Part shown: one piece after another, positions 1 through 29,888 of the stretch
Layout of the letters: each line of letters opens with the position of its first letter
Position numbering within the stretch: position 1 is the stretch's first letter
From: Candidatus Zhuqueibacterota bacterium
GTDB taxonomy: Bacteria > SM23-31 > JBHPGK01
Direction of reading: 5' to 3'
DNA length: 64,000 nucleotides
Assembly (NCBI GenBank): GCA_042570605.1
Contig: JBHPGK010000001.1
Span: 8,644 to 72,643 of the forward strand
The notes under the pieces: generated by a model
Told to the model about the DNA's origin: nothing
Databases searched by the model: none
What the model saw: the letters and a program-made list of their open reading frames with translations, nothing else
Translations under genes and position numbers: made by a program

Positions 1-2558
1 GGAAGGTTGGTGTATTTAGGTTTTGATCTTTCCAGATTAATTTTCAGTGAATCATTTATATCCACCAGTTCAACTGCATTATTAAGGAATTCATTCATTT
101 TCTTTTTAACATTTTCCAGTATTTTGGAATCGCTGCTGTCGGAAATTGAAACTGCAGTCAGATCTACATCAAGATTTGAATTTACAAACGCTTCAAAGCA
201 CATCCCTCTAAAATATTCTGAAACCGTTCCCCTGTTCATACCGCCGATCTGGTCTGCAGTTCTCGATACGGAACCATAGCCGAATCCCTCCTCTCTGAGT
301 TTCTCCAGCATTATATCCGGTAGATTATCCTTTGTTTTTGAGTGTTCATGTACAGATTTCTGGATTTCTTCCGGTAGATCTGATATTTTGATAACATTTC
401 TGTTCTCACTGTTTGCAAATATTAATGCTCTTTTGATTGAATTTTCCAGTTCTCTGACATTTCCGGGCCAGCCATAATTTTTTAAAGAATCAAATGCAAG
501 TTTTGATATACCGATATCTTTAAATCCTTCTCTGCTGATAAAATATTTGATCAAAATGTCAAGGTCTTCCAGGCGTTCTTTTAAAGGAGGAATTTTTATA
601 TTAAAAGCGTTTATCCTGAAATACAGGTCTTCCCTGAATTCGCCTTCATTTACTACTGATTTTATATCCTTATTGGTAGCGGTTATTACCCTGACGTCAA
701 CTTTTTTTGTAACCTCTCCTCCTACACGCTCAAATTCACCTTCCTGAAGAATCCTGAGCAGTTTAACCTGAAAGGCAAGGCTGGTTTCAGTAATTTCATC
801 AAGAAACAAAGTGCCTCCGTCAGCGAGTTCAAATCTCCCCTTTTTATCGGATACCGCTCCGGTAAAAGCACCTTTCTGATGACCAAACAGTTCGCTCTCC
901 AACAACGTTTCTGTCAGAGCACCGCAATTAACAGCTATAAAAGGATTGTCCTTTTTCTTAGAAATATTATGAATAGTCCTGGCGATCAATTCCTTACCTG
1001 TTCCGCTGTCACCGGAAATCAGAACCGGGATATTTTCATTTGCAATTTTCTCAGCAAGATCTAATATTGCCTCCATTTTTCCGGCCGGATTGTATATAAT
1101 ACCCGGATACTTCTGCTCTTTTAATTCTTCGGGTTCACTTACCTTAATAATTTCTTCATCCTTTATCCGGCTTTTCAGATTATTGATTTCTTCCCTGTAG
1201 ACATGGATCTTTTCAATGATCTCATTTTTTATTACGGAATCCTCTTTTTCCTTTTCGATCTTTATTAATTCCTTTTGCAGATCTTTAAGAATATTTTCTT
1301 TTTCTGCGAGGGATATTTCAATTTCGTCTTTAGCTTCTTCCAAATGCTCACGTTTCACTTTTTCTTCGGAAAACAGGAACGAGATACCGGCTAAAAAGGC
1401 TGCTATATTTAATAGAAAACCCGGTACAAATTCCATATAAATATCAAAAAAGAGTACCCCAATATTTACAAGAAAAAAAAGCCCGAAAAATGATAGACCG
1501 AATAGTATTCCTTTTGCCCCGGGAAACCGGATGATCATAAAAAGCATTAGTAATGCAATAATTATTGAAAATAACCAGGAAAGGATAAACCCAATGTCTG
1601 TAAGAAAATCGTTTTTGATAATATTATCTATGACATTAGCAAAAACTATACTGAAAGTAGAATTGTTTTCAAGCGGAAATGACTGTGGGATACTTTTCCC
1701 TTCTGCAATTACGGAAATCAAAAATATTTTATTCTTTAATGATCCGGTATCACCATTATTTATTATATCCCATATTTCAAGGAATGAATATTTTGTTACG
1801 CTGTTCGTTGATGATTTGAAATTAACAATTCCAATTCCATCTTCAATGTTATCGACCGTTATATTCCCGATTCTGAGTTTATTATTGTCAAAATGAAATT
1901 CATTACTGCCGGTTTCTTTTTTTAAAACATGTCCTGCTGTACATAATGGAAAGCTTGGATATTTTTTCCCTGCATATTCTGCAAAAAGATTCAATTTTCT
2001 CACTTTCCCGTCAATATCGGTAATTAAATTTGTGAATCCCAATCCGCTGAAACTTTCAGCAAATTTTTGTTCAGGCGGGTTAAATATTTGTCCAAATGCA
2101 AAACTTTCGGCAAATATGTTTAGAGAAGGTTCTACAATATTTATTACGGGTTCTTCAAGTTTTTCATGAGTAATGTCATTAAAATAAAAAACTGAGAAAA
2201 TATTATCGTATTGTTTTATTGTTTCTACAAAAAATATATCATATTCCGGAAAATCAAATGACTCTTTTTCCAGAAGTATTGAAAATCCTATGGATAGTGG
2301 TTCCAGATTCTCCAGTTCTCCAACCAGCAAGGCATAATAGTTTTTTGTTAAAGGCCAGCCGCCCAGACTTTTGATATCTTCATTATCCAGATATATTACT
2401 ACGATCCTGTCGTCTAATTCTTCCTCGCCCCGTAAAAGAAATTTTAGATCATAAGAACTTAATTCTAACTTCTGTAAAAATCCAAAATTGAGATTAAAAA
2501 CTACGGAAAGTACAAAGATGATGATTACAACAAAAGCTGATTTTTTATTCCTGTTCAA
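1..2558 (-). CDS. Membrane-anchored sigma-54-dependent transcriptional activator with an N-terminal CHASE2-like periplasmic sensor domain. It is partial: the C-terminus runs off the window start.
   Basis: The minus-strand translation gives an N-terminal TM helix, a CHASE2-like region (IVVIYLDNEDIKSLGGWPLTKNYYALLVGEL), three TM helices, a coiled coil, then a sigma-54 AAA+ domain with GDSGTGKE and YGWPGNVRELEN motifs. It is absent from the ORF track because it has no stop codon inside the window. A TTG start near 2558 was inferred. Confidence 0.7.
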   Translation of the reverse strand, partial: MNRNKKSAFVVIIIFVLSVVFNLNFGFLQKLELSSYDLKFLLRGEEELDDRIVVIYLDNEDIKSLGGWPLTKNYYALLVGELENLEPLSIGFSILLEKESFDFPEYDIFFVETIKQYDNIFSVFYFNDITHEKLEEPVINIVEPSLNIFAESFAFGQIFNPPEQKFAESFSGLGFTNLITDIDGKVRKLNLFAEYAGKKYPSFPLCTAGHVLKKETGSNEFHFDNNKLRIGNITVDNIEDGIGIVNFKSSTNSVTKYSFLEIWDIINNGDTGSLKNKIFLISVIAEGKSIPQSFPLENNSTFSIVFANVIDNIIKNDFLTDIGFILSWLFSIIIALLMLFMIIRFPGAKGILFGLSFFGLFFLVNIGVLFFDIYMEFVPGFLLNIAAFLAGISFLFSEEKVKREHLEEAKDEIEISLAEKENILKDLQKELIKIEKEKEDSVIKNEIIEKIHVYREEINNLKSRIKDEEIIKVSEPEELKEQKYPGIIYNPAGKMEAILDLAEKIANENIPVLISGDSGTGKELIARTIHNISKKKDNPFIAVNCGALTETLLESELFGHQKGAFTGAVSDKKGRFELADGGTLFLDEITETSLAFQVKLLRILQEGEFERVGGEVTKKVDVRVITATNKDIKSVVNEGEFREDLYFRINAFNIKIPPLKERLEDLDILIKYFISREGFKDIGISKLAFDSLKNYGWPGNVRELENSIKRALIFANSENRNVIKISDLPEEIQKSVHEHSKTKDNLPDIMLEKLREEGFGYGSVSRTADQIGGMNRGTVSEYFRGMCFEAFVNSNLDVDLTAVSISDSSDSKILENVKKKMNEFLNNAVELVDINDSLKINLERSKPKYTNL

Positions 2559-2579
2559 TCTATCTACCGGATTCCTTTT

Positions 2580-4085
2580 TTAACGTTCTTCCTCTGCAAA
2601 AACTTCAGCCGTAAAAACGAAAAACTCAGTGCCGTCCATTTTCCAGGCATCTTTCGGCAATCCCGCTTTCATGCAGGTATACTCGATAAAGGTCTGTCTG
2701 TCCCATTTTTCCTCAACCGGTACCTGGGGCAGTAAAAGCCCCTGCCGGTTTCCCCTCTTGATGATCAGTCCGTGCTTACCGACAACCACATTTTCGGGAT
2801 CTTTCATCTGTGAGATCGGGCTCAGCACAGATATTTCCAGCTTCAGATCTTTAAGCTCGTTTTCCGAAACAGGAGCAAACCTGGGATCTTCAACCGCAGC
2901 AAGCCTGGCAACATCACCAACGGTCTCGTATAAAGTTTTTACCGGAACAATATAACCTATACAGCCTCTCAGATTTCCATTTTTCTTAATAGTAACAAAA
3001 GCGCCCCTTTTTTGCAACAGAATATCTGATTTTGGTGAAAATTCTTCAGGTTTTGCCCCCTTAACGGCAGAATTTATGGAATTCCATGCTATTTCAAACA
3101 GCAGTTTTCTGTCTTTTTCACTCAAAGACGTATCACTGTCCGGAGATTTTCCATCAGATTTATAAAATACCGCACCCATATACCCGACAACCCTGTTCTT
3201 ATCTCCATATTGATTATCTCCGGAGTTTGCATATTTTGTGATCCTAACACTTTTTGCGCCGAGTTTTTCAGATGCTATCATTGCAGAAACTACGGGGAAT
3301 CCGCCGCAGGCTTCAATCTGCCTTTTACTCAATCCATCAGCCAATCCCTTATAATCATAATTTTCCACACAGTCGACGAACTTCTTATCCAGAGCATTCG
3401 CATCATCGTACGTATGAAAATGCGATAGATCGCTGCTTGCAACGATAAGGGCACTTTTGTTCTTCAATACTTTTGCCAATGCGTTTCCCAGTGATGAGGC
3501 GACCCTGTAATTCTGTTCTCCCATAATAATCGGGACAATTTTAAAATCCCCTAATACAACTTGAAGAAAAGGAAGCTGAATTTCAAGGGAATGCTCGCTG
3601 TTTCCTGCAGTCGAGACCTTATGCCCTTTATCGGAAAAATTCAGTACGTCAGTTTCTTTAACTAATTTTCCCGCTATATCTTTATCAATGTCGATTTTAC
3701 CCAGCGGTGTTTCATAAGCACTGCCGTCATATACAGAACATCCGAGAAAATATTCCCGGTGCGAAGGGGCGATCACAACTACAGTTTCATATTTCCTGCC
3801 TGCCAGATTTTTATAAGCACTTGCCGCAATTTCACCTGAGTACGCATACCCTGCATGAGGAGATACTACTGCCCTGATCTCACCACCGGTCTCAACCGGC
3901 TGGACCTTGTCCAGATATGACTGAATTGTTTTCCTCAGTCCCTCTATATCACCGGGATACCAGCTTCCCGCAACTGCAGGTTTCCTGACTTTTCCTTTTG
4001 TCTGAATAAGATACGGTATTCCGAAAACCGATGAAATTACGAGTATTACAAAAAATAAAGTAATTATATTTTTTTTCATTGCCAT
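2580..4085 (-). CDS. AmmeMemoRadiSam system protein B (MEMO1-like) fused to protein A (AMMECR1 domain), with an N-terminal signal peptide or anchor.
   Basis: A MEMO1-like region (AGSWYPGD...VVSPHAGYAYSG) is followed by an AMMECR1 region (RGCIGYIVP...VEDPRFAPV). The N-terminus is hydrophobic (MAMKKNIITLFFVILVISSVFG). It overlaps the next gene by 10 nt. Confidence 0.8.
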   Translation of the reverse strand: MAMKKNIITLFFVILVISSVFGIPYLIQTKGKVRKPAVAGSWYPGDIEGLRKTIQSYLDKVQPVETGGEIRAVVSPHAGYAYSGEIAASAYKNLAGRKYETVVVIAPSHREYFLGCSVYDGSAYETPLGKIDIDKDIAGKLVKETDVLNFSDKGHKVSTAGNSEHSLEIQLPFLQVVLGDFKIVPIIMGEQNYRVASSLGNALAKVLKNKSALIVASSDLSHFHTYDDANALDKKFVDCVENYDYKGLADGLSKRQIEACGGFPVVSAMIASEKLGAKSVRITKYANSGDNQYGDKNRVVGYMGAVFYKSDGKSPDSDTSLSEKDRKLLFEIAWNSINSAVKGAKPEEFSPKSDILLQKRGAFVTIKKNGNLRGCIGYIVPVKTLYETVGDVARLAAVEDPRFAPVSENELKDLKLEISVLSPISQMKDPENVVVGKHGLIIKRGNRQGLLLPQVPVEEKWDRQTFIEYTCMKAGLPKDAWKMDGTEFFVFTAEVFAEEER

Positions 4086-5215
4086 ACTCCCGGAATAGTA
4101 GTATTACATTTACTGCACCTGCCCTTTTCGAAATTTTTCAAATTCACTGAATAACCTAACCTTTGAATCACAACTGATTTGCATTTTGGGCAGTATGTAT
4201 GTCCACCTTTATGACCGATAGGGACATTCCCGAGGTACACGAAATTCAGCCCTTCGGCATCACATATTTCCTTTGCTGTTTCGAGGGTTTTTACCGGTGT
4301 CGGCGGAATGTTTTTTAGTTTGTACATCGGGTAATACCTGCTGAAATGAACGGGAACATCTCCTCCAAGCTCACTTTTGATCCATTTCGCCAGTTCCCTG
4401 ATCTCCTCCGGTTTATCATTCTGCTCAGGGATCATCAGATAAACAATTTCAAACCAAACACCTCTTTTTTTGAGTAAAACAAGAGTATCGAGTACAGGTT
4501 TTAACTTCCCCATTACGAGCTCTTTATAAAACCTGTCTGTGAATGCTTTAAGATCTATCTTGACGCCGTCAAGTACGTTTAAAAGGTCATCAAGAGGCTT
4601 CTGATTTATGTATCCATTCGAAATAATTACACTTTTAATTCCCTTTTTTCTGCCTTCAACTGCCGTATCATACATATATTCATAAAAGATCACAGGTTCA
4701 GAATAAGTGTACGCTATAGACGCACAGTTATTTCTTTTTGCTGATTCGGCAATCAGGTCAGGCGGTGCATAAACAGCTTTGACCTGCTCAGGTCTCATCT
4801 GGGAGATCTCCCAGTTCTGGCAGAATTTACACTCCACGTTGCACCCGACAGTTGCAATAGAAAAAGCTGTTGTCCCCGGCAAGAAATGGTAAAGAGGCTT
4901 TTTTTCAATGGGATCAGCATGTATAGAACAGGGACGTGAATACACCAGCGTATAATATTTACCACCCCTGTTTTCCCTTACACCGCAGTACCCTCTTTCC
5001 AGGTCATCTATTTCACATTCCCGCGGGCAAAGCTTACAGACTATCTTTTTGTCGGGCAGTTTTTCATAGTAGCGCGCTTCTTTGACAAATCTATCATCAT
5101 CGTCAATTCCCAGATTTTTCAGATTTAAGTCAAATACTGCTGCCGTGCATACAGCCGGTAAGCTTAAAAGACTGTCTTTCAGAAATTTTCTTCTTGTTAG
5201 TTTTTTGGGCATCAT
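4076..5215 (-). CDS. AmmeMemoRadiSam system radical SAM enzyme with an N-terminal twin-arginine (Tat) signal.
   Basis: It has the CX3CX2C motif (GCNVECKFC) and an N-terminal Cys cluster (CKLCPRECEI...GYCG) typical of TIGR04337-type enzymes. The N-terminus, MMPKKLTRRKFLKDSLLSLPAVCTAAV, matches the Tat consensus S/T-R-R-x-F-L-K. It overlaps the upstream gene by 4 nt. Confidence 0.8.
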   Translation of the reverse strand: MMPKKLTRRKFLKDSLLSLPAVCTAAVFDLNLKNLGIDDDDRFVKEARYYEKLPDKKIVCKLCPRECEIDDLERGYCGVRENRGGKYYTLVYSRPCSIHADPIEKKPLYHFLPGTTAFSIATVGCNVECKFCQNWEISQMRPEQVKAVYAPPDLIAESAKRNNCASIAYTYSEPVIFYEYMYDTAVEGRKKGIKSVIISNGYINQKPLDDLLNVLDGVKIDLKAFTDRFYKELVMGKLKPVLDTLVLLKKRGVWFEIVYLMIPEQNDKPEEIRELAKWIKSELGGDVPVHFSRYYPMYKLKNIPPTPVKTLETAKEICDAEGLNFVYLGNVPIGHKGGHTYCPKCKSVVIQRLGYSVNLKNFEKGRCSKCNTTIPGVWQ

Positions 5216-6192
5216 ACTGTAATTATTTTAATCTTTTCCGGATCATTTGTTCCAATTCCTAACTCGGCAGCGGTATTAATATACGTAGGTTCCCGGTTTT
5301 CTTCCTTCAAAGAGGGCAGATTATTTTTTTCACGTAATTCCTCAATAATGCTTACACCCACCGTATCCAGAGCAACAGGATCCGTTCCGATAAAAATCCC
5401 GTTATAGGGGAAACTCCACCGTGGGAAGAACGGCGGTCCGCCGTTATACTGGCAGTTCAGAGCATCCATTATGGTAATTACGGTCTTATTTTTTATCAGC
5501 GGATAATCATACAGGTCAGCAATATAGGGATCTCCAGTCTGTTCGTGGTACTTGTTCGGATTATGAATTATTCCATACATGTTTTTCATGGCGCCTGTAT
5601 AACCGCATATACCGTGGTCCTTCAGGACAGGCACATTAATGATAACATCACATTCTTCCGTTAATATACGGGAAAACAGACTCCCGACTGATCTGTTGAT
5701 CCTCAGGTTCCGTTCAAAACCTTTATGATCATTTCCGTAGCATCTGTATTTACTGCCTTGTGTATTTGTTTTGTATCCGGCACTTTTAAGGTCGCTGCTT
5801 AGGCGGTCAAATACGATAATTTTATCATCACTAATACCGGCTTCCGCAAGCTGCTTAACGATCGCTTCGGTCAATTCGACCTGAGTGGATGCGCCCCCTT
5901 TACCTGCAAGACAGTTGATCTTAATACCTACGGTCGAACCGCCGGGTAAAATCTTTTTCCAGCCGTCAACATGACTGTCTACATTAAAGAAGGATTTTAT
6001 ACCCTTTTCAAGGAGAGTATTTACTTTATCAGCATCAAGATCGTTTCTCGATATCCTGATACCGTCATCCTGCGCGATAATGACTTTTGAATCTTTCCGG
6101 TAAAAAGATTTTGATGCTCCTGCAGTACCTTTTTTTAAGTACAAACCGCCGGAAAAGAGTGTAAAATATTTGAAAAAATCCCTTCGTTTCAT
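5212..6192 (-). CDS. DUF362 family protein with a Tat-type signal peptide.
   Basis: NVPVLKDHGICGYTGAMKNMYG and GIKINCLAGKGG resemble DUF362 (PF04015). The N-terminus is MKRRDFFKYFTLFSGGLYLKKGTAGA. It is translationally coupled to the radical SAM gene. Confidence 0.65.
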   Translation of the reverse strand: MKRRDFFKYFTLFSGGLYLKKGTAGASKSFYRKDSKVIIAQDDGIRISRNDLDADKVNTLLEKGIKSFFNVDSHVDGWKKILPGGSTVGIKINCLAGKGGASTQVELTEAIVKQLAEAGISDDKIIVFDRLSSDLKSAGYKTNTQGSKYRCYGNDHKGFERNLRINRSVGSLFSRILTEECDVIINVPVLKDHGICGYTGAMKNMYGIIHNPNKYHEQTGDPYIADLYDYPLIKNKTVITIMDALNCQYNGGPPFFPRWSFPYNGIFIGTDPVALDTVGVSIIEELREKNNLPSLKEENREPTYINTAAELGIGTNDPEKIKIITV

Positions 6193-6406
6193 ATCGGTAT
6201 AAAATATACCTCATATCAAGGCAATTGTCAAGAAATAGTAAAGGAGGAAATCTGAATGTTAAAATCAAAAATTAAATATAAAAACTACATATCAAAATCT
6301 AAAATCAAATTTTGTCAAAAATGAAATAATTTATTAACCGCGAGAGGCTTATACTAATGATGTCTTGGAATGTCATTGACTGCTCAGGAATATTTGATTA
6401 AATATA

Positions 6407-6967
6407 TCACTCCTCATAAGTCAGTGAAACCTTATCAAACCATCCGGTACCATTTCCCGCCATCCAGAGGTATACTCGAATATTTTGTGTTTTTTCAGGA
6501 GTATCTATTGAAATAGAATATCTTTTCCAGCCGACAGGGTAGGAGGTTATTTTATCTATTTCTATAAAATGATAAGATAAAATTTCATGATCTGCTTTTT
6601 GTACATTGATATGTGCAGAAATATTACCGACAGTTTTTCCATAAGTTTTCATATAGATTGAAAATGTGAGATTTTTACCGGCGGGAACATTATAAACCGT
6701 CTGATAAAACATTCCGTATTTTGATACCTGTGATACTGAACTTTCTATTTTCAAACATTTTTCTCCGAAAATTGCAGATTCAGTATCAATCGCTCCTGTA
6801 ATATTAAGAGTATCCGATCCGCCATAACCCCAGTATTTCGGAATTTTATCGCCTGCTTCAAAATCACCATTTTTGAGCAATTCTATAATTTCAGGTTTAT
6901 TTGGGCTGCAGTTTGAAAATAATACAAATATGATGATTACTGCCGATACAAAGATATTTTTTTTCAT
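6407..6967 (-). CDS. Small lipoprotein with a CBM4/9-like carbohydrate-binding fold (186 aa).
   Basis: There is a signal peptide ending ...LFSNCS. NGDFEAG...YWGY and GNGTGWFDKVSL motifs are present. It is paralogous to 9656..10216. Confidence 0.5.
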   Translation of the reverse strand: MKKNIFVSAVIIIFVLFSNCSPNKPEIIELLKNGDFEAGDKIPKYWGYGGSDTLNITGAIDTESAIFGEKCLKIESSVSQVSKYGMFYQTVYNVPAGKNLTFSIYMKTYGKTVGNISAHINVQKADHEILSYHFIEIDKITSYPVGWKRYSISIDTPEKTQNIRVYLWMAGNGTGWFDKVSLTYEE

Positions 6968-7197
6968 TTTTACCTCCTTTTAATTGAGGCTCCCTGTCAT
7001 AATATATTATTACAATAATTATGCCGGAATAAGAAATAAGAAATTTATTCTCGTAACATCTTAATTATCAGTAACTTATGAAATGTACTGTGATAAATAT
7101 AAATATTGTTGAAACTGCGGGAAGTCTGAAAGAATGCGGGAAATGATGTAAAAATGTTAAGAATTAACAATCTTTATCTATTAATTGAAGGAATTAA

Positions 7198-7228
7198 AAG
7201 GAGGACATTGCTCAATGTCCTCTTTTTA
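7198..7228. terminator. Hairpin plus T-run, terminator-like palindromic repeat (GGAGGACATTGCTCAATGTCCTCTTTTT).
   Basis: It is a perfect 9-bp stem followed by T5. Near-identical copies occur at 42231-42260, and a variant at 42088-42118. Confidence 0.4.
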
Positions 7229-7593
7229 CACAAATGTTTTAACGGTATTGTTAAACCAGGGGTTGTCACATGGATATGTGAAAATTTTATTGTAGGGAAC
7301 GGTCGCGACCGTTCCCTACATCAATTGTCATCATTATGATTTTAAATTTTAGCTTACGAAGGTGTTTTTCCACAAAGTGGTCAATTCTTGACATGGTCTC
7401 CCAAATATGAGAGGAGACCCTGAAACAAGTTCAGGGTGACATTTTTGGAGTTGCGCAACAGACACTTTCACAGGAATGACACTTTCTGTGAGTGTTTTGA
7501 ATAGCCCCCTATCATTTACTGTCTTGATTCATTTCCTGAGGCTTCTTATTCAACCACGGGCTTTGGAACCTTAGCCTTTCTTCTCTCATATCG

Positions 7594-7673
7594 CTTTGCA
7601 CTATGCCCTTTGCACTTTGCTCTCTGCACTTTGCTCTATGCCTATGCACTATGCCCTTTGCTCTCTGCTATTT
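7594..7673. repeat. Degenerate heptanucleotide tandem repeat, (TGCNCTN) about 11 copies.
   Basis: tgcacta tgccctt tgcactt tgctctc tgcactt tgctcta ... is read directly. It abuts the stop codon of the M1 peptidase gene. Confidence 0.7.
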
Positions 7674-9647
7674 AATAAATACGAACTTCTTAACATCCTT
7701 AAATCTCGGGGTTTCCATTTTTACAAAGTATACGCCTGAGCTTAATTCAAAGTAAAAGTCATTCGTCAAATCCCACCTTTTTATATATATCCCAGCCGGC
7801 TGGTCATACACATAAAATTCTTTTACTTCCTGCCCGAGGATATTATAAAATGTGATCTTTACATCCGTTTTGACAGGTATATAGTATTTTACTCCGATCT
7901 CAGGTATTTCTGACTGCACACACGGATTGGGAAAAGGCTGGAATAATTTGAAATCGTCAGGGACAGGAGTAGTAAGATGCCTTTTCTTTAAAACTTTGTA
8001 ATTCGGATCGATGATTATGTTTTTGGGCTGCTCGTCAACCGTAAATGTAAAATCATCACTTCTTTTATTGAATACTATATCCTCGATCTGCATAGTACCG
8101 TTTTCCAAAAGAATTCCAATCTCAAGCAGCAGATGAAATGTCGGACCTTCCTCCTGTACCTGGCTGAGGTTAAGGTCTACTTTATAACTGCCTCCAACAC
8201 TCTGTGATGTCCAGTCATATTCAATTTCCGGCAGACCTATGTCAAAAAGCCACTGGTCAAAGAACCACCTGAGATTCAAACCGGATAACTCTTCACACAA
8301 TAGTATAAAATCCTCTGTATTAATATTCCCCCATTTAAACCGGTTTAAGTGCTCACGTGTAATGTTCCAGAAAACGTCGTCACCCACTATATTCCGCAGC
8401 ATATGCAGTACCCATGCACCTTTTTGATATTCATTCGTTCCGAAAATATATTCATACGGCGGGTCATAAATAGCATATCTGAATCCTGCATCAGCATTGA
8501 ACACTGCCTGCTCCATGCCATTCAGGTAATTGATAAAACTGTCTTCACCATATTTATACCTGAACCATTCGCCCGTATAATAGGTTGCGAAACTTTCATT
8601 CAGCCAGATATTTCTAAAATCAAGGCAGGTAACAAGGTCACCGAACCACATATGTACAAGCTCATGGGCAAAACCACCCTCAGCCCCACCGTGTCCGTTT
8701 ATCCAACTTTCACTCATTGTCGTAATGCTCGTATGCTCCATACCTCCGCCCCAGCCTCTCATTTCCATATGCCCGTATTTATCATAGGGGTAAGGTTCAT
8801 CAAAAAGCTGTACATACAATTCCATCATTTCGGCAATATTCCTGAGATCAAAAGCGGCTGCTGCTGAATCCTCCGGAAAAATATAGTTAAGAATAGGGAT
8901 GCTGTCCCCGTCTGCCACATACCAGTCGGTAGCAACTGTATAATCGGAAATTGAAAATGCCATTAAATACGTTGTTAAAAAGTGGTCTTCCTTCCAGTGA
9001 TAAGTAATTGTATTATCGGGATTTGCTATTTCTTCAATAAGTATGCCGTTTGAAGCGACCTTGTACATCTCAGGTACGGTAATTTCACACTCCCAGGTCG
9101 CTTTATCCCAGGGCTCATCAAAACAGGGCATCCAGTACCTCGCATCCCAGGGTTCAGACAGAGTAAATGCGTTCTTATCGTTATAAAAAAATCCAATATT
9201 GTCAGAATTGGTATATCGGTAATAAATATCTACAATTCCATTTTCATTATTGATAAGAGGACTGCTCAAATCGATCGATAAAAATCCCGGAATGATACTA
9301 TGACTTATTTTATCCCATGTAGGATCCGTGCTTTCGGGGTCCGAAAACAGGACACTGTCTATTTCCAGATACAGGGAATGAAATCTGATATTTGTCAGAT
9401 TTGCTTCATTGCTTTTAAAAGAAATTTTTACATTTCCCGAGTATTCTCGGTTTGTCATGGGAACATTCAATTTCAGGTAATACTTTATCACATCAAACGA
9501 ATGCGAGGAATCTGCAAAAATATGACTGCCTTTATTTAGAAATTGATTTGCTTTCAAGAGACTGTTTTTCGGATTTTCTAATAAATTCTGGGCAAATATA
9601 ATATTTGATAAAAATAAAATCAGAAGCAGGACTGTCTTATGTCGCAT
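7668..9647 (-). CDS. M1 family zinc aminopeptidase, secreted via T9SS (C-terminal sorting domain).
   Basis: HELVHMWFGD...(18)...E and GGMEH motifs are present. There is an N-terminal signal. The C-terminal roughly 80 aa resemble a T9SS CTD (GVYFVKMETPRFKDVKKFVFIK). Confidence 0.85.
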   Translation of the reverse strand: MRHKTVLLLILFLSNIIFAQNLLENPKNSLLKANQFLNKGSHIFADSSHSFDVIKYYLKLNVPMTNREYSGNVKISFKSNEANLTNIRFHSLYLEIDSVLFSDPESTDPTWDKISHSIIPGFLSIDLSSPLINNENGIVDIYYRYTNSDNIGFFYNDKNAFTLSEPWDARYWMPCFDEPWDKATWECEITVPEMYKVASNGILIEEIANPDNTITYHWKEDHFLTTYLMAFSISDYTVATDWYVADGDSIPILNYIFPEDSAAAAFDLRNIAEMMELYVQLFDEPYPYDKYGHMEMRGWGGGMEHTSITTMSESWINGHGGAEGGFAHELVHMWFGDLVTCLDFRNIWLNESFATYYTGEWFRYKYGEDSFINYLNGMEQAVFNADAGFRYAIYDPPYEYIFGTNEYQKGAWVLHMLRNIVGDDVFWNITREHLNRFKWGNINTEDFILLCEELSGLNLRWFFDQWLFDIGLPEIEYDWTSQSVGGSYKVDLNLSQVQEEGPTFHLLLEIGILLENGTMQIEDIVFNKRSDDFTFTVDEQPKNIIIDPNYKVLKKRHLTTPVPDDFKLFQPFPNPCVQSEIPEIGVKYYIPVKTDVKITFYNILGQEVKEFYVYDQPAGIYIKRWDLTNDFYFELSSGVYFVKMETPRFKDVKKFVFIK

Positions 9648-9655
9648 TTTTACCT

Positions 9656-10216
9656 CTATTTAATATGAATTAAGGATGCATTATCAAACCACACGGTACC
9701 GTTACCCTGATGATACAGGACAAGGTCTAACCGGACGGCTTCGGGTGAGATCCGTTTCTTTACAGAGTATTTTCTCCATGAATTTGAGCCATTAATTGTA
9801 AAATACTCGCTTGTTGATTCAAAATCAATCACATTTCCCCTATGATCAACAGCCTGCAAAATTACGGCTGCAGAACCGATAGTAACATCTACAGTTTTAA
9901 CATAGGCAGAGAATTCCAGTTCTTTACCCTTTGGAAATGTAGTCTGATTCTGGTAATAGTAGGACCTGATATCATCATAATATTCAAGATTTTCAATTTT
10001 TATGCACCTCTGCCCGGAAAATACATTTTCCGCATCAATGCCGGTTATAAATTTTGTCTGGTAGGGATTAGAAACATTCCACCCGGCCGGGGGTTCCGTG
10101 CCTTCTTCAAAATCACCATTAATTAATACATCTTCCTGATACGGTTTATAGATGCTCTTACCACAGAAAGCAGAAACAACAAAAGCAAAAAGAAGCAAAT
10201 ATTTTAAATTTTTCAT
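9656..10216 (-). CDS. Small secreted CBM4/9-like protein, paralog of 6407..6967 (186 aa).
   Basis: It has a signal peptide and INGDFEEG...GWN and GNGTVWFDNASL motifs. It is the same length as its paralog. Confidence 0.5.
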   Translation of the reverse strand: MKNLKYLLLFAFVVSAFCGKSIYKPYQEDVLINGDFEEGTEPPAGWNVSNPYQTKFITGIDAENVFSGQRCIKIENLEYYDDIRSYYYQNQTTFPKGKELEFSAYVKTVDVTIGSAAVILQAVDHRGNVIDFESTSEYFTINGSNSWRKYSVKKRISPEAVRLDLVLYHQGNGTVWFDNASLIHIK

Positions 10217-10786: not shown

Positions 10787-12040
10787 TCAGAAATTGATCT
10801 CTCCCTGAGGTGTGATTATTTTTACAAGTTTATATTCTCCATTCTTATACCGGTCAATAAATACATATCGCCGTGATAATTCTCTATAATCCCATATCTG
10901 GTATTTTTCGCCGATTGCTATTCCTTCATCCCGGGTACTAATTTTATCCGGCCTGCCTAATTTTACATATGTTTCTCCCATATCTGATTCCCAACCACGC
11001 TCAAACGCAGTAGAAAATTTCATATTAGCATAGCTTATCCTGTAAAAATATTCTTTCATCAGATCAAAATTCTTATCCTCTTCAGGTTCCATGTTCTTCC
11101 AGTATTCCAAAAATTCCAAACGCTGCCGGTCTTCAGGAAGCTCAAGCAAAGCTTTTTTCTCATCACTTTTTAAAATGTATTTCATATATTCGATACCTTC
11201 AGGAAGACGTACAGCATCAACTGGAAAATTTACCCACAATAAATTGACGGTCTTTTCCAATTTTATATCATCATGCAGTAATTCTAATTTATAACTCCCG
11301 GACTCTATCTCATATCCTGAAAGAAAGACTTTGACCGGAATGATCTTATTTTGTTCGATATTAACAGAATCATAATGAGAAAACAGCGTCTCATCAGGCT
11401 TATAAATTGAGGATATTTTCCATTCAATTATACTGCTTTGAGAAATTTTATTACTAAATATTTCAGCATAAAGTGTCAGTCCCTTTTCGAAATCAACTTT
11501 TATCTCTTTCAGGTCTTTAAAAAAACGGAACTCATCTTCAGATAAAGATTTTCCTTCAAAAGCGACAATTTCAGTAATTGTATATTCCTTATCCCAGTAA
11601 TCTTGAACTTTGATCTTTTCCCTTTTCTGAATAAGTTTTCCGGAATCTTTATTCTTTACTTCCAGAATAAAATCGTATTTAGAGGGTTTTAATTCAAAAT
11701 ATATGTATTCATTTATAAATTTTTCCCGTGAACCTGTTTCTTCGTAACTTTTTACAACGACATTTTCTTCCCAGTATTTACTTTCGATCAATTTTAAATC
11801 CTCATCATATAATTCAACTGAAAATTCATATTTTGACTCAAAAACAGAATCATTTTTGAAAAATTCAAGGTTATTAAAAAATTCCATTATGTAAATTGAA
11901 AGAGATGAGCATCCTTCATTCTCAGAAGGATGCTCAAAAAGCATAACATTAAAAGGCTGTTTGTCTTCCTGAGAGAATATAGTAACCGTCATTGAAAACA
12001 ACAGCGATATTATCAATAATTTTATTGTAAAATTTTTCAT
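10787..12040 (-). CDS. GWxTD domain-containing secreted protein.
   Basis: There is a signal peptide. The C-terminal region has RGWESDMGETYVKLGRPD, which resembles the GWxTD signature (TIGR04514-like). Confidence 0.5.
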   Translation of the reverse strand: MKNFTIKLLIISLLFSMTVTIFSQEDKQPFNVMLFEHPSENEGCSSLSIYIMEFFNNLEFFKNDSVFESKYEFSVELYDEDLKLIESKYWEENVVVKSYEETGSREKFINEYIYFELKPSKYDFILEVKNKDSGKLIQKREKIKVQDYWDKEYTITEIVAFEGKSLSEDEFRFFKDLKEIKVDFEKGLTLYAEIFSNKISQSSIIEWKISSIYKPDETLFSHYDSVNIEQNKIIPVKVFLSGYEIESGSYKLELLHDDIKLEKTVNLLWVNFPVDAVRLPEGIEYMKYILKSDEKKALLELPEDRQRLEFLEYWKNMEPEEDKNFDLMKEYFYRISYANMKFSTAFERGWESDMGETYVKLGRPDKISTRDEGIAIGEKYQIWDYRELSRRYVFIDRYKNGEYKLVKIITPQGEINF

Positions 12041-25596: not shown

Positions 25597-26412
25597 TCAA
25601 AAAATCATATTTTGTTGAATAAATACTATTGCCCCCGTTTCGGGGTGGCAGTAAAAAGTGACAAGCCCTGCATCTACACCTTTTAAAGCGTAGATAAATA
25701 TTTGAAGTCCATCGGTCTTATCATATATTTCGTATTCATGTTTGAAATTATAAGTATCATCCCTGCTGTAAGTATGTTCTTTTTCACCTGTAAAGTCATG
25801 ATATGTATACGTATAACCGATGATATTACTCATAATTTTATCTTTATCAAACTGTACAGGTTTTTCAATTTTTATATCCGGGATCAGACCGGACTGAATA
25901 CTTTTTATTCTGCCTTCTCCGGAGAAACATAAATAAAGAATATGCCGGCTCACAAAATCCCAGTGTTTTCCGTTTATACCGGTCTGAATGAACCTTACAC
26001 TGAATTCATCCCAATCATTACTTATATTAGAATTGTAAAATTCAAGATTCTGCGCACTGCACCCGAACAGGTCTTCCCATTCTGTATAAAACTGCAATGC
26101 TCTTTCAATGCAGTCATTCTCATCATTCAAATTAAGCCCCTCGCTGAACACTATGGGATATGGTCTCTGAAAGCTTGCTTTTTCAAGGTACGAAGATGCA
26201 GGATTGAAATCGAGGTCCCACAGGGTATTCAGGTTATTATATTCAGTTAAAAAACTGTCCCACTTTTCCTGTATTTTTTCGTCCCTTTCCCAGTTGTAGG
26301 AAATAATATAAGGGTTTTTTGAATAAACTGTATCATCCGAACCGGTCAAGGAACATGAAAAGAAGGTCAAATGAATCAAAAGGAAATATTTTATGATTTT
26401 TACACAAATCAT
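25597..26412 (-). CDS. Paralog 1 of the six-member tandem lipoprotein family (unknown function).
   Basis: It has the FFSCS lipobox-like N-terminus and shared motifs NPYIISYNWE..IQEKWDSFL, WEDLFGC..NLE and a C-terminal YCHPETGAI. Confidence 0.6.
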   Translation of the reverse strand: MICVKIIKYFLLIHLTFFSCSLTGSDDTVYSKNPYIISYNWERDEKIQEKWDSFLTEYNNLNTLWDLDFNPASSYLEKASFQRPYPIVFSEGLNLNDENDCIERALQFYTEWEDLFGCSAQNLEFYNSNISNDWDEFSVRFIQTGINGKHWDFVSRHILYLCFSGEGRIKSIQSGLIPDIKIEKPVQFDKDKIMSNIIGYTYTYHDFTGEKEHTYSRDDTYNFKHEYEIYDKTDGLQIFIYALKGVDAGLVTFYCHPETGAIVFIQQNMIF

Positions 26413-26440
26413 ATTATTTTATTGTTTTTAGAGTGTTATC

Positions 26441-27283
26441 TTAATAAATACTCACAAGTATTTTTTCTGTTGTTTCCGGATGATAGTAAATTGTACATTT
26501 ATAATTATGGTCATCTTCAATCCAATAATATTTGATTCCTTTCAAATAGTAAACATATGCCTTATTTTCGGTATATTGTAAATATATTTCAAAATCGTCT
26601 TTTATATTGTAACTGTCTTTTGAGGTGAACTCATGATCAGGATACATAATAGAGCTGCCTGATAAATGAAATTTATGTTTATATCCCATCGTGCTGTGAA
26701 TCATATTATGAATATATGCTTTTTCAGGTTTTTCAATTTCCACATCCGGATATAATGCAGAAACGATCTGCAACAATTCACCATTTGTATTTACTCTAAA
26801 TCTGATCCATCGTCTGTAAACAAATTTTACTCTCCTATTATTAAGTTTTACCTGTTCAAATCTATAATTAAAATAATTCCCATAAAGGCTGTAGTCGTCC
26901 AGACGTTCAAATTCCAGATTCTCCACTTTACACCCAAACAGATCCTGCCACTTTTCATAAAATCCTAACAGGTCAGGGATAAAATCTTCCTTATTCGAGC
27001 TTGTAATTGAATCCGGAATAATTTTTGGTAAATTATTTTCAAAATAAGTTTGCATTAAATAGGATGTAGGCTTCATGAAAATTGTACCCTTGTCCATTGT
27101 CGCAGCATTATAAAAATCCAGAAATTGTTCCCATCTATCCTGAATCTGATTTTCTTTTTCCCAGTTGTAGGATATGATCACGGGATTGGCTGTTGTACTT
27201 TTTTCATCAGTTCCTGTAAGGGAACAATTATGTATAATTAAGACCGCTAATGATAAGAATTTTAAATATTTTAGATAATACAT
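26441..27283 (-). CDS. Paralog 2 of the tandem lipoprotein family.
   Basis: NPVIISYNWEKENQIQDRWEQFL, WQDLFGC and a C-terminal YYHPETTEKI are present. Confidence 0.6.
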   Translation of the reverse strand: MYYLKYLKFLSLAVLIIHNCSLTGTDEKSTTANPVIISYNWEKENQIQDRWEQFLDFYNAATMDKGTIFMKPTSYLMQTYFENNLPKIIPDSITSSNKEDFIPDLLGFYEKWQDLFGCKVENLEFERLDDYSLYGNYFNYRFEQVKLNNRRVKFVYRRWIRFRVNTNGELLQIVSALYPDVEIEKPEKAYIHNMIHSTMGYKHKFHLSGSSIMYPDHEFTSKDSYNIKDDFEIYLQYTENKAYVYYLKGIKYYWIEDDHNYKCTIYYHPETTEKILVSIY

Positions 27284-27295
27284 ATTTTTTAAATT

Positions 27296-28135
27296 TTACA
27301 GAATTTTAATATGTATAATTTCCCCCGTTTCAGGGTGGTAATAAATAGTACATTTAATTGTAAATCCACGTTCGACCCATGAAAATACAATTCCTTTTAA
27401 ATAATAGGTCAGGAAATAATTTTCTTCATAATCTACAAATAGTTCAAAGCCGTCCTTTAATTCAAAACTGTCATTAATTGAGAAAGTATGTTTCTCCGGG
27501 TACGGAAAAGAAGACCAGAGTGGGGCATTTATTTCAAAAGTATGACCAATTGTATTGTTGATCATGCGGCTCAAAAATGCATTATCAGGAATATCTATTT
27601 CAACATCGGGAATAAGAGAAGATATTATTCTGGTCAATTGCCCGGATGAACTTATATAGAACTCAATAGACTGTATAAGAACAAACACGCAATCTATTTT
27701 ATTTAACCTTTTCTGGATAAAACGCATATAGAAAGATCCTGTATCGCTGTATCTAAAGATATTATACAACTCCAGGTTTTCAACTGAGCAGCCGAACAGG
27801 TCCTGCCATTTCTCATAAAATTCAAGAATTTCGTCAATTAACTCAGTCTGGTTTAATAATACCGCGGGATCGGTAATAACTACAGGAAGATTGTTATTAA
27901 ATTTTGCATAAGTCAAGTATGAAGTTGATTTTATGAAGCGTGTTTTTTCAGTATCAGGTTCTGCGTTATATAAAGTCAGGAACTCAGCCCATCGCTCTTT
28001 GATATTATTATCAATTCTTGGATCAAAAGCAGTAATCACAGGATTAGAAGAGGTGTTTATATTTTCTCCGGGTGAGAAAATATCCGAGCAGGAAAAAATC
28101 AACAAAAATAATATACAAATAATGATCTTTTTCAA
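27296..28135 (-). CDS. Paralog 3 of the tandem lipoprotein family.
   Basis: It has an FSCS lipobox and WQDLFGCSVENLE and YYHPETGEI motifs. Confidence 0.6.
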   Translation of the reverse strand: MKKIIICILFLLIFSCSDIFSPGENINTSSNPVITAFDPRIDNNIKERWAEFLTLYNAEPDTEKTRFIKSTSYLTYAKFNNNLPVVITDPAVLLNQTELIDEILEFYEKWQDLFGCSVENLELYNIFRYSDTGSFYMRFIQKRLNKIDCVFVLIQSIEFYISSSGQLTRIISSLIPDVEIDIPDNAFLSRMINNTIGHTFEINAPLWSSFPYPEKHTFSINDSFELKDGFELFVDYEENYFLTYYLKGIVFSWVERGFTIKCTIYYHPETGEIIHIKIL

Positions 28136-28173
28136 GAGAGTCTCCTTTTAAGGATCATTTTTGAAAACAATTT

Positions 28174-29004
28174 TTAATTAGAATTTATTAACACTATCTC
28201 CCCCGTTTCAGGGTGGCAGTATACTGAATAGGTACTCGAGCCGTCCTGTTCAATAACATTTACGCATTTTAAAAAATATACATAATATTCTAATTCCGTT
28301 CTCTCAACATATACATTAAAATTCTCGCTAACCTCGTACCGGTCATCCTCAGTAAAGACCCGCACTACTTCGCCTGAATTCGGCGGATACACATAAGAAT
28401 ACCCGATAATATTTGACAGTATTTTATCATGGTCATACCTGTCAGGAACGGTAAGACCAAGGTCGGGAACAAGGGAATTATACAAATACCTGAAATTACC
28501 TGAATCGGTCACACCAATTACTATCTCGGGATTAAGTATAAAGGAAACATCCTGACCGTTCAGTTTTTTTTGAATAAAACTTATAGTAAATAAACGAAAA
28601 TCTGACCGGTATTCGAATTTATACATAATAAGACTTTCCGCTCCCGTTCCGAACAAGCCTTTCCATGTATCCAGGAATTCCAGTACTTTCTCGATAACTG
28701 CGTCCCGGTCATAAGCAATAAGAGTATCAGAAATGATGCGCGGCTGAGTCGCCCAGAAATGTATGTCATCGATATACGATGTCACCGGATTAAAATCCAT
28801 TGTAACATAACCGTCCTGAGACATATTATGCTGAGTAAGAAATTCAGACCATTTTTCCCGGATCTGTTCATCCCGGTACTCACTGAAAACGATCTTGACC
28901 GGATTATTTGAGTAGGAATATTCTTCATTAAGGTCCAATGACCGTTTTGAACAGGAGAAAACAAGAAATAGTGTTAAATTAAGGATAATATTTCTTCTTG
29001 ACAT
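28174..29004 (-). CDS. Paralog 4 of the tandem lipoprotein family.
   Basis: It has an FSCS lipobox and a YCHPETGEIV motif. Its 5' end overlaps the upstream paralog by about 26 nt, so the start is uncertain. Confidence 0.55.
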   Translation of the reverse strand: MSRRNIILNLTLFLVFSCSKRSLDLNEEYSYSNNPVKIVFSEYRDEQIREKWSEFLTQHNMSQDGYVTMDFNPVTSYIDDIHFWATQPRIISDTLIAYDRDAVIEKVLEFLDTWKGLFGTGAESLIMYKFEYRSDFRLFTISFIQKKLNGQDVSFILNPEIVIGVTDSGNFRYLYNSLVPDLGLTVPDRYDHDKILSNIIGYSYVYPPNSGEVVRVFTEDDRYEVSENFNVYVERTELEYYVYFLKCVNVIEQDGSSTYSVYCHPETGEIVLINSN

Positions 29005-29848
29005 AAATTATCTCCCCCGTTTCAGGGTGGCAGTAAATGACAAATCCCCATATTGAATTGCCAGTGTCCTTGACTTCAATTCCCTTGAGAAAATACATAT
29101 TATAAAAGGTTTCTTTTCTTTCAATATGTATTTCAAATCCATCTCTTATTTTATGCAGGTTTCCTGTATTTATTTTAAATGTGTTGTAGCTGTGCATATT
29201 ATTAATAGAGTGCCCGATTATACTTTTCATAATTTTATCCATATTACATTCTTTTGGAAATTCAGGATAGTCATTTAAAAAAATAGTATTCCAGAATCCC
29301 GATAATTCGCCGGTTTCTTTGATTGAAAATATGATACCGGGCTGGTCTATGAAAGGAACTTCCCTTCCCCCTATCCCATACTGCCTGAAATTAATTCTGA
29401 ATTGTTTATCCTCCTCGTAATATTCACTGCTATATACTCTAAAATTTGCATTAACTGAACCAAAAAGGTCACTCCATTCAAATAAAAAATCAATCAATCT
29501 GTCTTCAAGTATTTCTTTGTTTTCTGGATTAAACTCCTCATTAAAAATAACAGGTTTATAATCATTAAAATGTGATGATTCAAAATAAAATGTTACCGGA
29601 TCAAAACGAAAGTTCCCTTTATAATTATCAGGAATATTATAGGCACTTAAAAAATCTGTAAATCTTTCCTGTACTATGAGGTTTATTTCGCCACTGGCTT
29701 TTAGCTGGAAAGGATTCTCAAAATATTCCTTATCTTCAGTTCCATTGATATTTGAACAGCTCAAAAAACAAAACAAAACCACAGACAATACAATATTATC
29801 AAACATTGTTTCAAAAAATTTGTCGGTAATTTTGTAAAAAATTTTCAT
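28979..29848 (-). CDS. Paralog 5 of the tandem lipoprotein family.
   Basis: It has an FLSCS lipobox, WSDLFG and YCHPETGEII motifs. The internal Met at 29806 is a possible start. Confidence 0.55.
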   Translation of the reverse strand: MKIFYKITDKFFETMFDNIVLSVVLFCFLSCSNINGTEDKEYFENPFQLKASGEINLIVQERFTDFLSAYNIPDNYKGNFRFDPVTFYFESSHFNDYKPVIFNEEFNPENKEILEDRLIDFLFEWSDLFGSVNANFRVYSSEYYEEDKQFRINFRQYGIGGREVPFIDQPGIIFSIKETGELSGFWNTIFLNDYPEFPKECNMDKIMKSIIGHSINNMHSYNTFKINTGNLHKIRDGFEIHIERKETFYNMYFLKGIEVKDTGNSIWGFVIYCHPETGEIIYVKKKYYP

Positions 29849-29888
29849 GCTTCAAAAATCGGTTTTATCATTATCAAACAAAAGAGAA

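Follow-up and report, generated by a model that had tools for sequence, protein, structure and literature searches.

At positions 2580-6192 of a 64,000-nucleotide stretch of the genome of Candidatus Zhuqueibacterota bacterium (contig JBHPGK010000001.1; the whole stretch is referred to here as the window), three minus-strand genes lie head to tail and encode an AmmeMemoRadiSam system in which every protein begins with an export-type signal. In order of transcription they specify a DUF362 protein, a radical S-adenosylmethionine (SAM) enzyme (hereafter rSAM) with a twin-arginine translocation (Tat) leader, and a fusion of a Memo-like with an AMMECR1-like protein. On balance, the cassette is probably a form of the AmmeMemoRadiSam system that works outside the cytoplasm, facing the periplasm. 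The observations behind this reading concern gene structure, family assignment, the conservation of signals and of gene linkage, and fusion proteins in related organisms with their predicted topology. Radical SAM enzymes are regarded as confined to the cytoplasm, given their need for SAM, iron-sulfur (Fe-S) cluster assembly and a very low-potential electron donor. No description of a Tat-signal-bearing or exported radical SAM enzyme was found in the searchable literature, where AmmeMemoRadiSam is mentioned only incidentally.

The features of the cassette are as follows (an arrow marks a possible cleavage site).

5212..6192, minus strand: DUF362 protein (PF04015), 326 amino acids, first gene of the operon, LarA-like fold
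6115..6192, minus strand: leader of the DUF362 protein, residues 1-26, with MKRRDFFK (n-region), YFTLFSGGLYL (h-region) and KKGTAGA↓S (c-region; AxA site, basic residues)
4076..5215, minus strand: AmmeMemoRadiSam-type radical SAM enzyme (TIGR04337), 379 amino acids
5078..5215, minus strand: twin-arginine leader of the rSAM, residues 1-46, with MMPKKLTRRKFLK, D, the uncharged stretch SLLSLPAVCTAAVF (14 amino acids) and an acidic linker to the core
2580..4085, minus strand: fusion of MEMO (system protein B) and AMMECR1 (system protein A), 501 amino acids, or 499 amino acids from the ATG at 4079
3987..4085, minus strand: hydrophobic N-terminus of the fusion, residues 1-33 (MAMKKN, IITLFFVILVISSVFGIPYLI, QTKGKV), a Sec signal or signal anchor

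Gene structure and family assignments

The stop codon of the DUF362 gene overlaps the rSAM start by 4 nt (ATGA, 5215-5212), and the rSAM stop overlaps the start of the fusion gene by 10 nt if the ATG at 4085 is used, or by 4 nt (ATGA) from the ATG at 4079, which is the NCBI start and gives the 499-amino-acid product (P0391). The encoded proteins match entries from a candidate division KSB1 bacterium at 100% identity. In-frame stops are present 15-21 nt 5' of all three starts, and no Shine-Dalgarno sequence is evident 5' of any of them. An earlier note on this DNA had read the genes as a single operon from their overlapping starts and stops, and had taken two of the products for a MEMO1-AMMECR1 fusion with a hydrophobic N-terminus and a TIGR04337-like radical SAM enzyme with a textbook Tat motif; all of this is borne out. 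The rSAM scores 386.9 bits against TIGR04337 (cutoff 220), with its core at residues 47-378. The fusion matches TIGR04336 (Memo-like, protein B) over residues 34-307 with 279.9 bits (cutoff 26) and TIGR04335 (AMMECR1-like, protein A) over residues 328-496 with 185.9 bits (cutoff 99); it also matches the Pfam Memo and AMMECR1 families and contains the LRGCIG motif. The parts of an AmmeMemoRadiSam system, namely rSAM, protein B and protein A, are thus found together and translationally coupled in one operon.

Three groups of cysteines are present in the rSAM: C60-x2-C63-x3-C67-x9-C77, the radical SAM motif C125-x3-C129-x2-C132, and C342/C345/C367/C370. In 72 aligned sequences C60, C63, C67, C77, C125, C129, C132, C342, C345 and C370 were invariant, and C367 was kept in at least 90%. 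By sequence, its nearest solved relative is the pyruvate formate-lyase activating enzyme (PFL-AE), and NCBIfam models of PFL-AE and NrdG type are matched as well. The DUF362 protein scores 93.3 bits against PF04015 (gathering score 24) over residues 88-280.

AlphaFold2 models of the rSAM and DUF362, built on 70-72 homologues, have predicted local distance difference test (pLDDT) values of 88 (mean) and 88.5, respectively. The core is confident from about residue 41 in the rSAM, where residues 1-40 are low, and from about residue 32 in DUF362, where pLDDT falls below 50 at residues 13-31. In both leaders, mostly at pLDDT below 65, a short helix covers the double-arginine (RR) motif and is followed by a disordered stretch. 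The model coordinates of the protein families and the pLDDT profiles agree that the N-terminal extensions lie outside the conserved cores.

The export-type leaders

The sequence TRRKFLK, residues 7-13 of the rSAM, agrees with the Tat consensus S/T-R-R-x-F-L-K at every specified position. The hydrophobic (h) region that follows has 14 uncharged residues and a possible TAA↓V site. Among the 120 best rSAM homologues (58-72% identity), 114 have RRx[F/L] ahead of the core; when 80 genome loci are added, an RR motif upstream of the core is found in 174 of 181 homologues, at 53-73% identity and from more than 10 phyla. The leader consensus is [I/L]-[S/T/D/N]-R-R-x-F(89%)-[L/I](86%)-K(65%), with a median distance of 39 residues from RR to core and a median longest uncharged stretch after RR of 19 residues. 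Scanned singly, 47 of 76 homologue leaders match the Tat model TIGR01409 (E <= 0.05, best 4.6e-6), and 10 of the 76 match the formate-dehydrogenase Tat model TIGR02811 (formate_TAT). One homologue, P0051, has a precomputed Pfam TAT_signal domain, and the raw feature was therefore already visible in databases. Neither the rSAM nor the DUF362 leader of the window matches the Pfam Tat model PF10518.

Within the first 40 residues, an RR-x-hydrophobic motif was found in only three ORFs (open reading frames) of at least 120 amino acids in the 64-kb window, and two of them are the rSAM and DUF362. Because these two are adjacent and their motifs are kept in homologues, the motifs exceed what chance would give. 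No in-frame ATG, GTG or TTG is present in codons 2-80 of the rSAM gene; the core, which begins at residue 46/47, cannot be translated without the RR leader.

In DUF362 the near match to the Tat consensus is KRRDFFK, at residues 2-8. The second Tat-like signal that the earlier note had read here stands in part: the N-terminus it quoted is exact, the motif is a near match, and RRxF/L is found in 107 of 120 homologues, but the leader of the window does not match TIGR01409. Many of the homologues have a lipobox-like cysteine after the motif (LSGLPGC↓Q, LMAGAC↓K, FIFGC↓T). The 29 DUF362 genes that adjoin rSAM genes in related loci have RRxF/L leaders too, often with a lipobox. A lipobox directly after a Tat h-region makes sense only for an exported lipoprotein.

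The best Protein Data Bank (PDB) fold matches of the DUF362 model are racemases of the LarA family, which use a nickel-pincer-nucleotide (NPN) cofactor (E 1.6e-5 to 8e-4, TM-scores of 0.4-0.5), the top match being 7s91 (E 1.6e-5, TM-score 0.47). Neither a single-sequence nor a profile search of DUF362 against PDB sequences gave a match. An invariant segment, KDH193-x9-K203...H210NPNKYH216 (KDHGxxGxxGxxK...HNPNKYH, residues 191-216), was found, and its H193-x9-K203 spacing presumably recalls the His174/Lys184 pair by which LarA holds its nickel-pincer cofactor. By this analogy DUF362 may bind an NPN-like cofactor, and loading of such a cofactor in the cytoplasm would explain its use of Tat. The DUF362 and LarA/DUF2088 families are placed by Pfam in one clan, CL0471 (PMC11770544), and fusions of DUF362 to CBM9 and dockerin modules, both of them extracellular contexts, also occur (PMC5742341).

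The N-terminus of the MEMO-AMMECR1 fusion consists of MAMKKN, a 21-residue hydrophobic stretch and a weak VFG↓I site; it could be an uncleaved anchor instead of a cleaved signal. A hydrophobic N-terminus of Sec or lipoprotein type is present in 77 of 84 scorable fusion homologues, many of which have canonical signal peptidase I sites (AFA↓ED, AQA↓GE) or lipoboxes (LSAC↓ES, LAAC↓GR). Six "short" homologues resemble gene calls from an internal methionine.

Relatives of the enzyme and fused electron conduits

The rSAM core alone was searched against 1.84 billion cluster representatives, giving 1543 relatives at E <= 1e-30, of which the best 150 were examined. Among these, forms of about 335 amino acids begin at the core, forms of 370-400 amino acids have RR leaders (down to 39% identity), and further relatives carry transmembrane anchors or N-terminal fusions. 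In a crude neighbour-joining tree, which is indicative only, all 42 RR forms share one block of about 61 leaves with anchored and fused forms, and the remaining 88 leaves comprise all but three of the leaderless forms and a few extended or fused ones.

In P0135, P0137 and P0138 the rSAM is fused to FMN_bind and a polytopic PF12801 module (NapH-like Fer4_5). Each has the ApbE flavinylation motif [ST]GA[ST] (ITGAT) and two CX3CP motifs, and the order, with helices counted by a hydropathy window, is FMN_bind, three transmembrane helices, CX3CP, two helices, CX3CP, one helix and rSAM. With FMN_bind outside and the CX3CP motifs inside, as in the NapH/NosR topology and in agreement with the charged loops, the last helix would put the rSAM outside. 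In P0159 an RR/transmembrane segment is followed by FMN_bind and rSAM with no transmembrane helix between these two domains, and the upstream gene encodes a membrane protein with DsbD_2 and PF12801. P0133 and P0141 consist of a six-helix DsbD_2 domain followed by rSAM; their loops 1, 3 and 5 are rich in lysine and arginine, which places both termini outside by prediction. Consistent with this, the same DsbD_2 C-terminus runs into FMN_bind in P0137. Meheust et al. 2021 describe NapH-like PF12801 proteins whose N-terminal FMN-binding domain is extracytosolic as modules that transfer electrons across the membrane to extracytosolic redox enzymes (PMC8238504); the main text of that paper makes no mention of radical SAM, Memo, AMMECR1 or DUF362.

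In some other rSAM relatives a beta-propeller or CBM_11 domain is located between a signal and the rSAM, and in the relative P0126 RNRF replaces RRxF.

Distribution and gene linkage

Linkage was counted in the loci of the best 80 of 511 relatives, in a scan of one genome per species. These loci come from KSB1, Calditrichota, Ignavibacteriota, Latescibacterota, Acidobacteriota, Sumerlaeota, Phycisphaerales, Omnitrophota, Thermodesulfobacteriota, Eisenbacteria and many anammox Planctomycetes. DUF362 lies directly 5' of the rSAM gene in 29 of the 80, and a signal-bearing MEMO-AMMECR1 fusion is adjacent to it in 21, in the order DUF362-rSAM-BA or BA-DUF362-rSAM (BA being the fusion). The cassette recurs in KSB1, Calditrichota, Ignavibacteriota, Acidobacteriota, Sumerlaeota, Phycisphaerales and Omnitrophota. 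Conservation of the extensions and of the DUF362 linkage in related genomes, both of which the earlier note had proposed as checks, was therefore found. In anammox RR-rSAM loci synteny is variable, and neither DUF362 nor the fusion gene was found within 6 kb. The loci of the leaderless rSAMs P0134, P0146 and P0153 have no adjacent Memo or AMMECR1 gene.

A multi-helix membrane protein of 725-880 amino acids with a central spermidine-synthase domain (PF01564) is encoded beside RR-leader rSAM genes in 28 of the 80 loci (for example L018:7421-9901(-), L026:3212-5584(-), L052:7241-9874(-) and L088:6370-8631(+)). This neighbour is spread over Planctomycetota, Thermodesulfobacteriota, Acidobacteriota and Proteobacteria, is usually convergent with the rSAM gene, and is absent from the window; the L088 copy lies on the strand of a DsbD_2-rSAM fusion gene, with an 11-nt overlap at the stop of the fusion. 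The spermidine-synthase fold binds SAM or decarboxylated SAM, and the protein may thus have to do with the supply of SAM or with a substrate common to both. In L079, a metagenome-assembled genome of Terriglobia (positions ~3800-7005), DUF362 and rSAM form one 733-amino-acid ORF with a second RR-type leader between the domains, which could be a genuine fusion with a retained internal leader or else an artefact of read-through or of assembly in a contig of high GC content.

Proposed mechanism

We infer the following scheme for export itself, for where catalysis takes place and on what substrate, and for the origin of the electrons and of SAM. The rSAM, with its three cysteine clusters, and the LarA-fold DUF362 would fold in the cytoplasm and exit via Tat by their RRxF(L/F)K leaders. 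Folding before export would be needed for the rSAM because its Fe-S centres must be built in the cytoplasm, and DUF362 would probably also carry a cofactor across the membrane. Cytoplasmic folding and cluster loading before export, which the earlier note had offered as one of several possibilities, is the option favoured here. Tat substrates are typically loaded with their cofactors before export, and the ten invariant cysteines and one near-invariant cysteine in the three rSAM motifs fit this logic. The MEMO-AMMECR1 fusion would be threaded out by Sec and remain membrane-anchored or secreted.

The three proteins would act jointly on an envelope substrate at the outer face of the cytoplasmic membrane. 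If the system is exported, its substrate would be expected within the envelope or the membrane itself, and the best fit would be a membrane lipid or isoprenoid, since it can be reached from both sides of the membrane. A bioinformatic link of Memo/AMMECR1/rSAM systems to isoprenoid modification was reportedly drawn by Burroughs and colleagues in the Journal of Biological Chemistry (JBC) in 2019, and an exported system would be more in keeping with that context than with a nucleotide substrate. The electrons for reductive cleavage of SAM would arrive from across the membrane. In the sister lineages the conduit fused to the rSAM would be the NapH-like Fe-S module with its flavinylatable FMN (flavin mononucleotide) domain, and/or DsbD_2; for the window cassette an unfused donor, either DUF362 or something encoded elsewhere, would take this role. 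PFL-activase-type enzymes are usually reduced in the cell by flavodoxin, which is an FMN protein, and a tethered FMN domain would therefore be a sensible external substitute. SAM would either leave with the folded enzyme as a bound ligand, spent in one turnover or reused catalytically, or be supplied by another route.

The boldest part of this scheme is catalysis outside the cytoplasm, in which an old, Tat-exported, multi-phylum, PFL-activase-like lineage, with its clusters loaded and perhaps SAM bound, would be reduced in the periplasm or anammoxosome by a NapH-like module with covalent FMN, by DsbD_2 or by DUF362 and would work with Memo and AMMECR1 to modify an envelope lipid or polymer. 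This is put forward tentatively, at somewhat less than even confidence.

Alternative explanations

Several observations weigh against a periplasm-facing system. Localisation is deduced from leaders and topology read in sequences, and the transmembrane helices were counted with our own hydropathy window instead of a trained predictor. To our knowledge, no periplasmic pool of SAM or of a low-potential reductant has been found in bacteria. No gene for a NapH-like, FMN_bind or DsbD_2 protein adjoins the cassette in the window or in its closest relatives, and neither a TatA-like ORF nor genes for Tat machinery were found within the 64-kb window. The rSAM leader reaches 14.4 bits against TIGR01409, just below the cutoff of 16.7; in DUF362, which lacks a match to that model, the h-region is short, with just 11 uncharged residues. 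In P0164 and P0136 a lipoprotein-type (LLALLSGC) or plain Sec-type signal is placed directly on the rSAM, and a Sec-type signal is hard to reconcile with Fe-S loading. The rSAM leader h-regions are also rich in cysteine (4.6%, vs 1.4% in the DUF362 leaders of the same loci): at least one cysteine is present in 89% of them and at least two in 56%, clustering at +11/12 and +15/16 from RR, often as CxxC or CxxxC (LPCLAACAGG, SACAACALAG). A plain cleaved signal does not account for this. A lipobox was considered for these cysteines and rejected, as they sit halfway along the h-region, between residues that do not suit a lipobox.

Some of these points would be met if the RR leaders were membrane anchors or vestigial Tat motifs and the catalytic domains stayed on the cytoplasmic face, where SAM and reductant are at hand. 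NarG, for instance, keeps a remnant Tat motif for chaperone binding. The sub-threshold scores of the window leaders against TIGR01409 and the atypical, cysteine-rich h-regions agree with such a view, as do the plain N-terminal transmembrane anchors on the rSAM relatives P0132, P0215 and P0186. The window fusion has more lysine and arginine after its hydrophobic stretch than before it, which makes its orientation ambiguous. An uncleaved Tat or Sec anchor with N-terminal positive charge would, however, still leave the C-terminal domain outside. The lipoboxes right after the Tat h-region in DUF362 homologues and the signal peptidase I and II sites of the fusion homologues indicate true export, 47 of 76 rSAM leaders are significant against the Tat model, and P0159 joins FMN_bind to rSAM with no intervening helix; retention on the cytoplasmic face is therefore judged quite unlikely. 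That the leaders are an annotation artefact or chance, with true starts downstream or fortuitous RR motifs, is effectively refuted. An in-frame TTG at codon 17 of DUF362 and the lack of an evident Shine-Dalgarno sequence at the three starts could be cited for it. A start downstream of the RRxFLK segment, which the earlier note had named as the finding that would overturn its claim, is ruled out by the lack of any alternative rSAM start before the core and by the RR motif of 174 of 181 homologues; orthologues keep the leader, and in all three proteins the leaders are conserved across phyla at 53-73% identity.

It is also conceivable, though unlikely, that export is real and the radical chemistry is cytoplasmic. 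The rSAM, a relative of glycyl-radical activases, would then modify or activate DUF362 and/or another partner, and would exit with that partner or, inert, on its own leader. SAM and flavodoxin are cytoplasmic (textbook knowledge), and chemistry before export would solve the problem of SAM and reductant. The nearest characterised relatives are protein-activating enzymes, as seen from PFL-AE and the PFL-AE/NrdG-type NCBIfam matches, and DUF362, by its leader a folded Tat substrate, could be modified before it leaves. Known exported proteins that are modified by radical SAM enzymes are modified first and exported second, and in the HXS system the Tat signal is borne by an effector that a radical SAM enzyme matures (PMC13128918). 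A maturase, however, needs no conserved Tat leader of its own, yet nearly all homologues (174/181) keep one. The fusion, if exported by Sec, would pass unfolded and hence could not be the pre-export substrate; anammox RR-rSAM genes lack both DUF362 and the fusion gene within 6 kb; and an rSAM placed behind the last transmembrane helix or after an extracytosolic FMN domain points to electron delivery outside. The periplasm-facing system thus remains the preferred reading, and the remaining probability falls to some explanation beyond it and these three.

Surroundings of the cassette in the window

Two further features adjoin the cassette.

6203..6231, minus strand: sigma-70-like promoter match TTGACA-17 nt-TATATT (11/12), by consensus only, ending 11 nt before the DUF362 ATG
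1..2558, minus strand: CHASE2 periplasmic sensor fused to a sigma-54 AAA+ activator, running off the window; context only

Promoter-type matches in the region are not more numerous than expected from shuffled sequence, and with the match ending so close to the ATG the mRNA leader would be very short or absent. An Rfam scan of 2300-7700 gave no RNA element or riboswitch at E <= 1. The CHASE2-sigma-54 gene starts with a TTG 21 nt past the fusion stop, with no terminator-like site between; it is probably not part of the system, since its adjacency to the cassette is not kept in related loci.

Upstream, two paralogous 186-amino-acid lipoproteins (6407-6967 and 9656-10216, minus strand) flank an M1 aminopeptidase (7668-9647, minus strand). 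The first of them has a weak CBM_4_9 match (25.0 bits vs a gathering score of 25.9). The aminopeptidase has a signal peptide and a C-terminal tail that resembles a type IX secretion system (T9SS) sorting domain by eye only, and this group is followed by a GWxTD-domain protein at 10787-12040. At 25597-30767 (minus strand) six tandem paralogous genes encode proteins of 271-292 amino acids with lipoprotein-like N-termini, whose mature parts open with NPV(I/K)I(S/V)... in common; they form a lineage-specific lipoprotein array.

Significance

The exported-type rSAM is not a one-off: it belongs to a large, apparently undescribed lineage of the family, some members of which have fused transmembrane electron conduits. 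With this lineage in more than 10 phyla, either the chemistry of radical SAM enzymes has been relocated across the membrane or a Tat leader serves a new purpose. Memo and AMMECR1, which have links to disease, are conserved all the way from bacteria to humans. A naturally exported version of both would argue against a nucleic-acid substrate, at least in this lineage, and for one in the membrane or envelope; external rSAM catalysis, if true, would also point to the substrate class of these proteins. The compact three-gene operon and the fusion proteins offer experimental handles on Memo and AMMECR1.

Comparison with known systems

With the canonical AmmeMemoRadiSam system the cassette shares matches to all three family models well above cutoff, the CX3CX2C motif together with the N- and C-terminal cysteine motifs, and clustered, coupled genes. 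It differs in the export signal on every protein, in the fusion of B and A, and in the addition of a Tat-type DUF362 as a conserved partner. The canonical rSAM has about 330-350 amino acids with the core from about residue 5, whereas that of the window is preceded by a leader; likewise, the solved AMMECR1 proteins (207-230 amino acids) and MEMO1 (about 294 amino acids) have no N-terminal extension, unlike the fusion.

Cofactor enzymes exported by Tat include hydrogenase small subunits, formate dehydrogenase, NrfC/NapG-type ferredoxins and reductive dehalogenases. The S/T-RRxFLK leader of the window is the same as in these Fe-S and cofactor redox enzymes, and is likewise placed on a protein that needs cytoplasmic cluster loading, but here the passenger is a radical SAM enzyme, with its added need for SAM and for an electron of very low potential. 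We know of no radical SAM enzyme that has been described as a Tat substrate. To the NapH-/NosR-like flavinylated modules (PMC8238504) the relation is indirect: sister-lineage rSAMs are fused to exactly that module, and the window cassette is without it.

DUF362 shares fold matches and a Pfam clan with the LarA/DUF2088 racemases (PMC11770544). It differs from them in having 11-16% identity at TM-scores of 0.4-0.5 and no sequence-level similarity to solved structures, in being shorter (326 vs about 420 amino acids), and in carrying an export leader.

Radical SAM maturases of exported proteins include anSME and QhpD. In these, and in the HXS system (PMC13128918), the rSAM is genetically coupled to proteins that end in the periplasm, as it is in the window. 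In those systems the rSAM is cytoplasmic and signal-less and only the substrate is exported, whereas the rSAM of the window itself bears a conserved Tat leader.

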